Assembly: GCA_963718565.1 (NCBI GenBank)
Contig: OY970364.1
Span: 1,280,001-1,344,000 of the forward strand
Direction of reading: 5' to 3'
Length of the DNA stretch: 64,000 nucleotides
From: an uncultured Verrucomicrobiae bacterium
GTDB taxonomy: Bacteria > Chlamydiota > Chlamydiia > Chlamydiales > Rhabdochlamydiaceae
Shown: positions 12,155-14,086 of the stretch, one piece after another
Numbering within the stretch: position 1 is the stretch's first letter
How the letters are laid out: the number at the start of each line of letters is the position of its first letter
Notes under the pieces: generated by a model
Seen by the model: the letters and a program-made list of their open reading frames with translations, nothing else
What the model was told of the DNA's origin: nothing
Database searches by the model: none
Translations under genes and position numbers: made by a program

Positions 12155-14086
12155 TCAAGGTAAATCTGGTGCGTAAAGCTCTCTCATATTTCTGCCGACA
12201 AGAGTTTTTTCGCCTTCATCGCTTGTATACCACCACAAGCCCTTTCCCTCATTCGCAAGATGGAACTCAAAAATTTCAATGGGCGAGATGCGGACCCCCT
12301 CTTCGCTATATGACTTGTCGTTGTTGAAACGGCTTTTGATATTAATGAATTCTTCTTTTCCACCAAACATTTTAAAAAACAGTTCCCGCGGAGTTAGTGT
12401 GATCTTTTCTTTGCTGAGCTCTTCTGCGAAGATCGCTTTAAGTTTCTCCAAGCGATGGATCTGTGCTCCATAAGCAGCTTTAGAGATCTGAAGAGATGTT
12501 TGTTGTCTCTTGAATTTTTCTGTAAGGCGAGGATCTAAAAACATGAGAAGGATTGCTCGATCAAACGGCTGTGCGTTTTGAGGCATGCCCATGTGCCACA
12601 TGCGAAATTCTCCGACATCATTCGAGATCGGCATTGACTTCTCATCATCAAAGTCCCAAAAATTGACAACTCTTCCCAATTCGGGACGATAATCCACAAA
12701 GGTATTGTCAGAGGAACAATCTACAGAGCCCTTAATGATTCCCAAAAGTGCATAAAAATGGACTAAGGCTTTAGGAGCCGTCTTCAGTTTTTCTCCTCCT
12801 CCAGTGGGGTCTTTCCTGATCAAATCAACAGCGCGTCTACAGTCGTGAATCCAAGGCTGTACTGAACCTTGAACATTAAAAACAGCGACATGATTTTTGA
12901 ACGCCTCAGAATTGAGATAATTTTGAATCGCAATACATTTTTCTCGATCCGATGTACTGCATCCACCGGTACTATAAAATAGTTTCTCGCCCAAACTATC
13001 GATTTCTCGACGATCTCCACATAATGTGTACATTTCTCCAAAAATGCAGTTTCTAACCTCTTGAGGAATGTGCGATTCATGGAATAATTCAAATGCGTGT
13101 TGCCTAAGGAGTGCTGCCTTTTCCCCGTTTTCTTGTCGACTAGAAGCCTCGAACAACTTCTTAACCTCGTAAACAGCGCTAAAAATATTTTTATTCCTGA
13201 GCAGTCCAGTAGGAGCCGACATCCCCAAACCACAAAGTCTATCACATTGTGCTGCATAAACCTCTTTCATTGCGGAATGGATATCCAGAGGTTTAAATTT
13301 CCCTTGCTTATCTTCATCCGAAGGAATGACATAGATCGGTTTCCACGCAGATTGATCTGAAGTTTGAAGGGAATGATTGTGGATCTGCTGAATCGTCATT
13401 TTGTGAATAGACCTGAGTCGAAGGTCATTGGAGAGATCTGTAGAAGTGGGATGAAAAAATTCCTTTCTCAACAGTCGCTCGAGAATGATCTCCGCAGCGA
13501 TTTCATCGTAATCACCTTTCACTACTTCCTCGATAACAGAGGTCAAATATTCAAACTGTTCCATCTCTTTTGAACCTAAGGATTCAGGTAGGGAAAGATA
13601 ATGCATCTCTTTTACCTTCCAAGCAGACTGAATTGAGCTTGAGTCAGCAAATAACTGGGGGTATTTGGTACAAAGATTGTGATTTAGACTACGGAGCCGA
13701 GCTATAATGCGCACTCTTTGGGTGAGCGCCGGATCTGCTTGTGTTGAGAGGAGATTTTTTAAGAACAAAGGACAGGGGTAAGCAATAAATTTAGCTGCTC
13801 CATCTGGGCAATCCTGACCAAATGCATGGAATAAACCTACACACTTTTTTTTGAAAATGGTATGAACCAATCGGGTAGTGCTATCAAACAGATGATATCT
13901 TCCCCAGTCCCTATTCCAATCTTCGATGGTGACGCCATCCGTTAGGGCTTTAAAATAGACCTCTCGTTGGAGATCGTTAACTTCTGCAGCATTCAGAGTG
14001 GAGACATAAGTCTCTAACTGTTCTCTTGTAAACATCTGATGATAAAGTGAGGAATCGGGCAATGCTTTAATACTCATTATTTCCAC
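12155..14086 (-). CDS. PI4-kinase type II-like (PI3_PI4_kinase fold) atypical kinase; candidate effector; likely start ATG 14077
   Basis: Ordered motifs GKFKP...KEVYAAQCD...APT...GSVQPW...DCSSDN (for DRHxxN)...DFDDE (for IDHG)...WHMGMPQNAQPF (cf. WxxWPQAxxPF). Confidence 0.62.
   Translation of the reverse strand: MEIMSIKALPDSSLYHQMFTREQLETYVSTLNAAEVNDLQREVYFKALTDGVTIEDWNRDWGRYHLFDSTTRLVHTIFKKKCVGLFHAFGQDCPDGAAKFIAYPCPLFLKNLLSTQADPALTQRVRIIARLRSLNHNLCTKYPQLFADSSSIQSAWKVKEMHYLSLPESLGSKEMEQFEYLTSVIEEVVKGDYDEIAAEIILERLLRKEFFHPTSTDLSNDLRLRSIHKMTIQQIHNHSLQTSDQSAWKPIYVIPSDEDKQGKFKPLDIHSAMKEVYAAQCDRLCGLGMSAPTGLLRNKNIFSAVYEVKKLFEASSRQENGEKAALLRQHAFELFHESHIPQEVRNCIFGEMYTLCGDRREIDSLGEKLFYSTGGCSTSDREKCIAIQNYLNSEAFKNHVAVFNVQGSVQPWIHDCRRAVDLIRKDPTGGGEKLKTAPKALVHFYALLGIIKGSVDCSSDNTFVDYRPELGRVVNFWDFDDEKSMPISNDVGEFRMWHMGMPQNAQPFDRAILLMFLDPRLTEKFKRQQTSLQISKAAYGAQIHRLEKLKAIFAEELSKEKITLTPRELFFKMFGGKEEFINIKSRFNNDKSYSEEGVRISPIEIFEFHLANEGKGLWWYTSDEGEKTLVGRNMRELYAPDLP

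Follow-up and report, generated by a model that had tools for sequence, protein, structure and literature searches.

Which kind of enzyme is encoded by an unnamed open reading frame (ORF) on a chlamydial chromosome, and would it act inside the bacterium or in the eukaryotic cell around it? This question is raised by a 64,000-nucleotide stretch (the window; positions 1,280,001 to 1,344,000 of contig OY970364.1) of a genome assembled as a single 2.28-Mb contig. The window has the content of a chlamydial chromosome (ATP/ADP translocase, hrcA-grpE-dnaK, murE and pbp genes), and on its minus strand an ORF of 643 codons runs from a GTG at 14086 to a stop at 12155. An earlier note made from the letters alone had described the product as a cryptic, unannotated kinase resembling the type II phosphatidylinositol 4-kinases (PI4KII). 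Our analysis points to a soluble enzyme whose residues ~121–590 form a kinase domain of PI4K type II that has diverged very far, that is, to the PI4KII kinase fold in what appears to be a rebuilt and unannotated bacterial form. Residues of this protein (the query) are counted from GTG 14086.

The translated ORF contained all seven PI4KII motifs that the earlier note had listed, and in the order that it had given: GKFKP (residues 262–266), KEVYAA (274–279), APT (291–293), GSVQ (407–410), KGSVDCSSDN (452–461), DFDDE (478–482) and RMWHMGMPQNAQPFD (495–509). The N-lobe equivalent (residues 241–296; 13199..13366 on the minus strand, as are all parts of the gene) comprises a hairpin without a glycine-rich loop, K265 as the ATP lysine of FKP (13292–13294), E275 (13262–13264) and APT 291–293. 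The C-lobe equivalent (residues 405–590; 12317..12874) holds the hinge GSVQ (12857–12868), the catalytic loop with the putative catalytic D456 (12719–12721) and N461 (12704–12706), the metal-binding D480 (12647–12649) and the activation segment R495–D509 (12560–12604). The insertion of ~110 aa that had been placed ahead of the hinge corresponds to residues 297–404 (108 aa; 12875..13198), which face a gap in every relative without the insert. Regarding the catalytic loop, the divergence of DCSSDN was correctly noted, but the DRHxxN taken as the type II reference was not, since type II enzymes read DRGNDN; DRHxxN is the form of this loop in PI3K and PI4KIII. As aligned, DCSSDN departs from DRGNDN mainly by loss of the Arg, and an Arg after the catalytic Asp occurs in none of the catalytic-loop patterns listed for the clade. 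The loop reads DCSSGN in 16 of 21 orthologues and DCSSDN in the query.

The motif residues were invariant in all 21 aligned orthologues. For the wider family we counted 118 cluster representatives (E ≤ 1e-3), with denominators that vary by position, and the motif-bearing positions listed here were the most conserved ones among them. K263, K265 and E275 were kept in 34/34, 33/33 and 33/33 sequences, respectively, and K249, in the stretch replacing the glycine-rich loop, in 29/32; further along the chain, the counts were 53/55 for Q410, 55/70 for D456 (11 Ala), 70/70 for N461, 69/72 for D480, 68/73 for E482, 102/103 for G500, 97/103 for P502, 93/103 for Q503 and 102/102 for R545. The complete set of K, E, D, N and D was present in 54 of the 55 relatives that cover the five catalytic positions, as well as in all 6 further copies examined, tandem duplicates among them. 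The C-lobe was the most conserved region, with a mean column identity of 0.70 versus 0.65 in the N-lobe. So far as sequence can tell, the motif pattern exceeds chance, because the invariance in orthologues is accompanied by a profile alignment onto the PI4KII counterparts and by controls at noise level.

This profile alignment was obtained with hhalign, using the query family (A1), 15 chlamydial PF00454 proteins (A2), 36 distant relatives without the insert (A3) and a merged clade alignment of 66 sequences with the query as first row. A1 matched a set of 19 chlamydial PF00454 proteins (Prob 94.5, E 8.2e-8, 239 columns), A2 (Prob 85.9, E 5.3e-6, 237 columns) and A3 (Prob 100, E 4.3e-46, 356 columns), and A3 in turn matched A2 (Prob 98.9, E 3e-17, 286 columns). 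The merged clade gave Prob 98.8 against both the PF00454 set (E 5.4e-17, 221 columns) and A2 (E 9.4e-17, 216 columns). A hidden Markov model (HMM) built from A3 detected PF00454-positive loci in HMMER at E 1e-9 to 1e-11 per genome. When the A2 profile was searched against PDB, it found only PI4K II beta/alpha (4/4 distinct sequences, E 2.4e-35 to 8.3e-31), and four A2-type proteins re-scanned with Pfam were PF00454 in 4/4 cases. The description as a cryptic PI4KII-like kinase is thus borne out by a chain that leads from the query family through A3 and the chlamydial PF00454 proteins to PI4KII alpha/beta. Among the controls, reversed profiles, whether template or query, gave Prob 0.1–0.2, and the best of 20 column shuffles gave Prob 1.5. 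Comparison with nine chlamydial Pkinase proteins yielded Prob 0.2 for A1, 0.1 for A3, 5.3 for A2 and 0.1 for the merged clade; membership in the eukaryotic-type protein kinases (PF00069) was rejected on the Prob of only 0.1–0.2 for A1, A3 and the merged clade.

A FastTree phylogeny of 86 sequences and 431 columns, rooted at the midpoint and carrying local support only, placed the PF00454 proteins, together with a second paralogue from this genome, to one side of a branch with support 97 and the unannotated clade, of at least 118 cluster representatives, to the other. The query subfamily and its long forms (~850–1270 aa) formed one group (support 100), within which the query subfamily alone received 99. 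PF00454 proteins were found in 141 of 401 genomes of the phylum (E ≤ 1e-3), 119 of the 141 above the cut-off. Those of type II kind (loci L019–L038) reached up to 6 matches per genome among the matches listed, and family f4 had 0/30. The second paralogue (471 aa; G000:C1:1658224-1659639, or L046:1003-2418, plus strand) is more canonical, with the motifs GCGSAYF...VKP, SIQEY, DNDGHGGN, IDNGLSFP and AWIPNAIQP; it was matched by A3 (2e-7) and A2 (8e-7), had PI4KII alpha as its best PDB match (E 0.018) and showed no PF00454 or NCBIfam match.

None of the family libraries searched (Pfam, NCBIfam, PHROGs, PADLOC) names the kinase, as the claim that it was unannotated had implied. Pfam returned nothing for it (E ≤ 1) or for any of the 21 orthologues, the gathering score of PF00454 not being reached, and Pfam kinase families were found neither in 43 relatives scanned at E ≤ 0.01 nor in 26 relatives at E ≤ 10, where the sole hint was FAM198 in one protein (E 0.05). 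NCBIfam, PHROGs and PADLOC searches with the protein gave no match; a phage collection held no match to the kinase, and a plasmid collection gave one Legionella record. In PDB, phmmer with the protein and searches with profiles A1 and A3 recovered no kinase at a significant level, and profile A7 recovered only FAM20A/C at E 0.5–1.0 (N-lobe only, not significant) together with unrelated helical proteins. At E ≤ 10, the PF00454 model had no match in a six-frame search of the genome, and the PF18640 model (LepB N-terminal PI 4-kinase) had none on the genome either. A protein language-model look-up, used as a lead only, returned at rank 13 a cluster with PF00454 in 38% of its members and at rank 29 the LepB_N cluster. 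Searches of open-access papers and preprints turned up no publication on PI4KII homologues from bacteria or chlamydiae, nor on the query family.

Several of these searches count against homology. The Pfam PF00454 model and the HMMER profiles A1, A3 and A7 failed to reach PI4KII directly, the comparison of A1 with the single sequence of the second paralogue gave Prob 1.9 only, and the A2 HMM, run at E ≤ 10 on a database of 138 sequences, did not recover the query itself. In that same database, the A2 HMM found P0030 at 3.9e-9 and three orthologues at 3e-6 to 1e-5. With both sides weighed, we consider it very probable that the query is a homologue of the PI4KII-type kinases.

If the residues work as their counterparts do, K265 paired with E275, together with the hinge Gln410, would hold ATP, D456 would be the catalytic base, and N461 and D480, with the conserved E482, would hold Mg2+, so that ATP-dependent phosphotransfer would proceed by the usual Lys/Glu, Asp, Asn/Asp mechanism. 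We predict the protein to be catalytically active, with good though not high confidence. It would be a pseudokinase scaffold, or a kinase fold with another chemistry such as AMPylation or glutamylation, only with low probability: both the glycine-rich loop and the Arg in the catalytic loop have disappeared, the acidic DFDDE cluster, itself unusual, has become fixed, and a sister subfamily with Ala for the catalytic Asp (AGHxxN, 11/70) implies that the clade tolerates loss of canonical catalysis, whereas the query subfamily keeps the five canonical residues without exception (21/21; 6/6 further copies) and has its most conserved region, at a mean column identity of 0.70, in the C-lobe. Many chlamydial members of the sister subfamily (P0062, P0059 and P0065, for example) have AGHxxN and keep the Lys, Glu, Asn and metal-binding Asp; such AGHxxN members may be pseudokinases, or the His may have taken over.

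Downstream of the kinase gene, at 10081..11889 on the same strand, lies a gene for a 602-aa fusion of NADAR with a classical protein-tyrosine phosphatase (Pfam Y_phosphatase 6e-38, NADAR 3e-14), whose phosphatase part had the receptor protein-tyrosine phosphatases (PTPs) sigma and LAR as best PDB matches (E 1e-34). A kinase of the query subfamily or of its long form adjoins an orthologue of this phosphatase gene in 12 genomes of at least four genera, nine of them in the genus (G000, G092, G126, G221, G224, G401, G402, G392, G305) and three in three further genera (G174, G179, G332). The two genes were arranged on the same strand, convergently or divergently, in places with as little as 3 nt between them; two kinase copies each were present in G092 and G221, and G410 was an exception in that its 240-contig assembly has kinase and phosphatase on separate contigs. 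In a 13-genome sample of the genus, kinase and phosphatase occurred together in the same 7 genomes and neither was found in the same 6, a co-occurrence that we give without a statistic, related genomes not being independent. Identity within the genus was 44–46% for the kinase, ~60% for the phosphatase and 79–83% for the flanking genes compared (glutamate dehydrogenase, P-type ATPase, M18 peptidase and VIT). A module common to kinase and phosphatase was not found (best E 0.56). The scan for promoters and terminators was at chance level (10 found versus 7.9 expected, and 7 versus 4.7), and its terminator part showed no minus-strand terminator between the two genes.

The phosphatase gene also carries a dispersed repeat of ~246 bp (window 10331–10576) with 57-nt inverted ends that are 86% complementary. 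The insertion is in frame, directly ahead of the HCHAGVGR catalytic loop, and adds ~80 residues that orthologues lack; the repeat has 48 DNA matches in this genome and occurs in 11 of 13 genomes of the genus. It resembles the palindromic elements of Rickettsia, which also insert within coding genes.

Since gain, loss and duplication affect both genes together, the pair could also be a cassette without any effector function, toxin/antidote-like, a stress switch or anti-phage, in which the phosphatase or NADAR reverses the action of the kinase on a target within the bacterium. NADAR is known from defence contexts, and weak matches to NF053876 (E 1.5e-5, far below the cut-off) and PDC-M42C (E 0.003) fit that idea, as do PI3/4-kinase-like proteins of free-living bacteria, given that TIGR03843 (SCO1664 family) matches a chlamydial PF00454 protein at 1e-7. 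However, the kinase has no PADLOC or phage match, the phosphatase resembles eukaryotic receptor PTPs (E 1e-34), the varying gene orientation implies that there is no fixed operon, and the insert of the kinase contains a module of F-box/WD40 proteins, and such proteins are sensible only in a eukaryotic cell. We therefore regard an intrabacterial cassette as very unlikely.

The module in question occupies residues 328–399 (12890..13105) of the 108-aa insertion and is common to F-box/WD40 proteins of the genus. Its mean column identity (0.62) was near that of the kinase lobes (0.65 and 0.70), while the linker before it had 0.38. The same module ends several F-box/WD40 proteins of this genome at 30–38% identity, and P0123 bears three copies in tandem behind an F-box and WD40. 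With a profile of the module, matching places numbered 16 for this genome, 28 for G126 and 5 for G092; among 200 genomes of the phylum just 6 had matches, and in the genus sample 9 of 13 did, with 0 to 29 places each, two of the nine being without the kinase. A language-model look-up of the insert alone gave uninformative scores (<0.8). The module is most likely an address or docking domain, and in that capacity it would replace the RK-rich membrane insertion of PI4KII. One F-box/WD40 gene adjacent to dnaA (51370–52420, minus strand) is split into two overlapping ORFs of 227 aa and 145 aa, the second of which ends in a copy of the kinase-insert module (51388–51579); this gene is probably either a decaying paralogue or an assembly frameshift.

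These observations bear on whether the kinase leaves the bacterium. No signal peptide or transmembrane segment was found in the protein, in which no 19-mer exceeds a Kyte-Doolittle hydropathy of 1.23, and it occurs only here and there, in 9 out of 200 genomes from the phylum and in 7 out of 13 from the genus. We consider it a reasonably likely candidate for a secreted effector, because it lacks a transmembrane segment and signal peptide in the genome of an obligate intracellular organism with genes for an ATP/ADP translocase and for a type III export gate, because it diverges fast relative to flanking housekeeping genes and is patchily distributed, and because its insert module occurs on F-box/WD40 proteins, chlamydial F-box families being known to carry type III signals. 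With Shigella as the surrogate in the assay, type III secretion signals from the F-box and BTB families of chlamydiae were functional (Domman et al. 2014, PMC4209131); the available portion of that paper mentions neither WD40 nor kinases. The kept catalytic residues, the lineage-specific module and the co-inheritance with the phosphatase gene likewise suggest that the product is probably a secreted, host-manipulating enzyme. The effector role and altered specificity that had been proposed earlier are accordingly plausible, on circumstantial grounds.

Taken together, the explanation that we rank first, with moderate confidence, is an active phosphotransferase that the chlamydia would deliver into the eukaryotic host cell, where it would act as a unit with its NADAR-phosphatase neighbour and be functionally coupled to that protein. 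Two observations speak against delivery and coupling. The export-gate gene (FHIPEP, SctV; PF00771; E 3e-177; G000:C1:58661-60650, L042) reads as two frames, a 617-aa ORF and a 137-aa ORF, from either a frameshift in the gene or an assembly error; and in G141, which has a long-form kinase, the phosphatase was not found.

What would such an enzyme phosphorylate? Type II PI 4-kinases are regarded as eukaryotic membrane enzymes. We compared the query with PI4KII alpha, reading equivalences from the alignments and following the numbering and the structural description in the accessible part of Zhou et al. 2014 (PMC3974213). In PI4KII alpha, insertion I1 (157–190), with CCPCC and an amphipathic helix, forms together with the activation loop a putative PI pocket of E157, Y159, R181, L184, T307, D308 and L349. 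The query has neither this palmitoylation insertion nor CCPCC, only 9 residues without a Cys cluster lying between K265 and E275; outside I1, T307 is replaced by V/M455 and L349 by K/R483 in the query family, and the catalytic Asp alone of the pocket residues is kept. The G-loop rich in glycine (130–136), which touches the membrane, is also gone, its GxSGxY aligning with DQSAWKPIY, a stretch without any Gly motif. At the site of the RK-rich insertion I2 (217–255, beta4–beta7), the query holds the unrelated, slightly acidic 108-aa insert (14 K+R versus 15 D+E, net charge −1).

We tentatively favour a host protein as the substrate, because the PI pocket is lost and a membrane anchor is lacking, and because the partner is a classical phosphotyrosine phosphatase and the structural analogues of PI4KII alpha are protein kinases. 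Phosphatidylinositol or another lipid appears to us the less likely substrate, and in that case the product would be a secreted kinase of phosphoinositides or other lipids that acts on PI/PIP at the inclusion or host membrane and changes organelle identity, the module taking over membrane targeting from the lost palmitoyl and RK-rich anchors. The sole solved relatives reached by the homology chain are indeed PI 4-kinases, and LPQxxxPF, which in PI4KII alpha is part of the activation loop that faces the membrane, ranks among the family's most conserved stretches (P502 97/103, Q503 93/103). Moreover, neither this genome nor any of 11 others from the genus (0/11) gave a PF00454 match, so that the query family could fill the role of the canonical proteins. 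On the other hand, besides the missing pocket-forming insertion, the unkept L349 and T307 and the missing G-loop, the insert is not basic, the query contains no hydrophobic segment, the partner is not a lipid phosphatase, and the same genome encodes the more canonical PI4KII-like paralogue with IDNGLSFP.

The relatives from Legionella and other Pseudomonadota (P0095, P0096, P0102, P0103, P0109, P0121, P0124, P0128 and P0131) weaken the preference for a protein substrate. A bilobed hydrophobic N-terminus, with two or three hydrophobic 19-mers at ~18–80 and of a kind typical of inclusion- or vacuole-membrane proteins, was present in 9/9 of them; such 19-mers were found in 0/21 members of the query subfamily and 0/9 long forms. 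Because this Legionella-type anchor fits a membrane, it also fits a lipid substrate for the wider family.

A broader scenario, to which we give no more than an outside chance, is that an undescribed clade of the PI4KII fold in Chlamydiota and Legionella-type bacteria gave up the lipid pocket and became protein kinases, possibly tyrosine kinases. With the phosphatase, the kinase would then form a writer/eraser effector cassette, and the module would be an address tag that co-recruits the kinase and F-box/WD40 ligase mimics. If so, kinase and ligase adaptors would meet on one host target, for example at a phosphodegron made by the kinase and read by WD40 F-box proteins. The tight linkage of kinase and phosphatase makes the effector pair a directly testable hypothesis, and the shared ~70-aa module offers a handle on effector addressing in the genus.

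With regard to the gene itself, the true start is most likely the ATG at 14075–14077 (residue 4, three codons inside the listed ORF), because a Shine-Dalgarno-like AGGTGG (14083..14088, read from the sequence) stands 5 nt before it, orthologues begin at the same Met and the database copy has 640 aa. The coding sequence, which is intact, would hence span 12155..14077 (640 aa plus stop), the listed ORF starting 9 nt further upstream at GTG 14086; the product has 73.5 kDa and pI 6.4. Ahead of the kinase lobes lie an N-terminal module of ~60 aa (residues 22–81; 13844..14023) and a pre-kinase region (residues 82–240; 13367..13843), which from about residue 121 aligns with the pre-kinase region of relatives; behind them is a conserved C-terminal tail (residues 591–643; 12158..12316) specific to the query subfamily and its long forms. 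The N-terminal stretch is a second portable module that recurs in other ORFs of ~400 aa in related genomes, with copies in P0137 (five in tandem), G126:C1:950558, G092:C3:611591 and G402:C107:1525. A search for kinase fusions found no fused longer forms, a result that the search tool itself rates as weak evidence. A search of sequencing runs gave partial DNA matches to the kinase gene in soil and freshwater metagenomes, and no RNA sequencing run with the gene was among the runs listed. The named relatives are metagenome-assembled genomes (MAGs) labelled Rhabdochlamydiaceae, Candidatus Rhabdochlamydia, Chlamydiia or 'Verrucomicrobia bacterium'.

Elsewhere in the window, two proteins with UCH-type ubiquitin hydrolase domains (22921–25431, plus strand, 836 aa; 34689–35813, minus strand, 374 aa) are further candidates for eukaryote-directed functions. 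The window also contains an IS630-like transposase gene (DDE_3 + HTH_33; 42069–43124, plus strand) and an ORF of 1426 aa (54686–58966, minus strand) without a Pfam match. Seven Pkinase-model matches at E ≤ 1e-20 in G000 (e.g. C1:356393-357223 and C1:1474475-1475239) amount to a large kinase repertoire for a 2.3-Mb genome.

Compared with known systems, the protein resembles human PI4KII alpha/beta (PDB 4HND/4HNE, 4PLA, 4WTV, 9HHM; PF00454) in plan, with the same motif order and each motif aligned with its counterpart. K265 corresponds to K152 of PI4KII alpha, the FKP lysine whose exchange in K152A inactivates the enzyme, and Q410 corresponds to the hinge Q261 of GSxQ, which contacts ADP (PMC3974213, in the sections available). 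E275 is equivalent to the Glu of the helix after K152, D456 and N461 to the first and last residues of DRGNDN (catalytic loop 308–315), D480 to the Asp of IDNG, and P502-Q503...P507-F508 to LPQAKVPF of the activation loop. Apart from the altered insertions and G-loop, the query differs in its loop DCSS(G/D)N in place of DRGNDN, its additional N-terminal module and C-terminal tail, its bacterial origin and the lack of a Pfam match. The same paper names protein kinases, namely H. pylori CtkA, the Golgi casein kinase Fam20C and actin-fragmin kinase, as those most similar to PI4KII alpha in structure.

The chlamydial PF00454 proteins (A2; ~450–530 aa) come from the same phylum, share the kinase core and are, along with the second paralogue, the nearest recognisable relatives. 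They differ from the query in keeping the G-loop GxSGxY, a long segment between Lys and Glu, DRxxGN or DGHGGN, and IDHG/IDNG, and, unlike the query family, they retain the pocket Thr and Leu. A phylum that lives inside eukaryotic cells thus holds both recognisable copies of PI4KII and a clade unnamed in every library searched; the query branch, in which the features responsible for lipid-kinase function in the human enzyme were lost and the catalytic residues kept, would be a natural experiment on re-aiming a lipid-kinase fold.

Clade A3 includes Lade_1943 of Legionella adelaidensis (WP_131739609.1; P0128, record L062:3077-4726), detected by the A3 HMM at E 1e-121, and the Pseudomonadota member P0131 clusters with a protein of a 'Proteobacteria bacterium' MAG. 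The members of clade A3 are clearly homologous to the query over the stretch between the start of alignment in the pre-kinase region and the end of the C-lobe and are likewise nameless in every library searched; they differ from the query in having no insert and, in many cases, AGHxxN in place of the catalytic Asp. These Legionella relatives suggest a family common to bacteria living in amoebae. In the survey of the Legionella pan-kinome (PMC9758233), Lade_1943 does not appear in the 10 supplement files, whose tables give one representative per group, and the query clade may overlap with one of the 13 novel families described in the part of the survey available to us. The atypical effector kinases of Legionella, such as the LepB N-terminal PI 4-kinase and Lmor_1975, which has a ~150-aa helical insertion between its lobes (PMC9758233), are comparable to the query in concept and without a demonstrated sequence link, LepB_N being a language-model lead only; what they share with it is the plan of a divergent kinase-fold effector in an intracellular bacterium.

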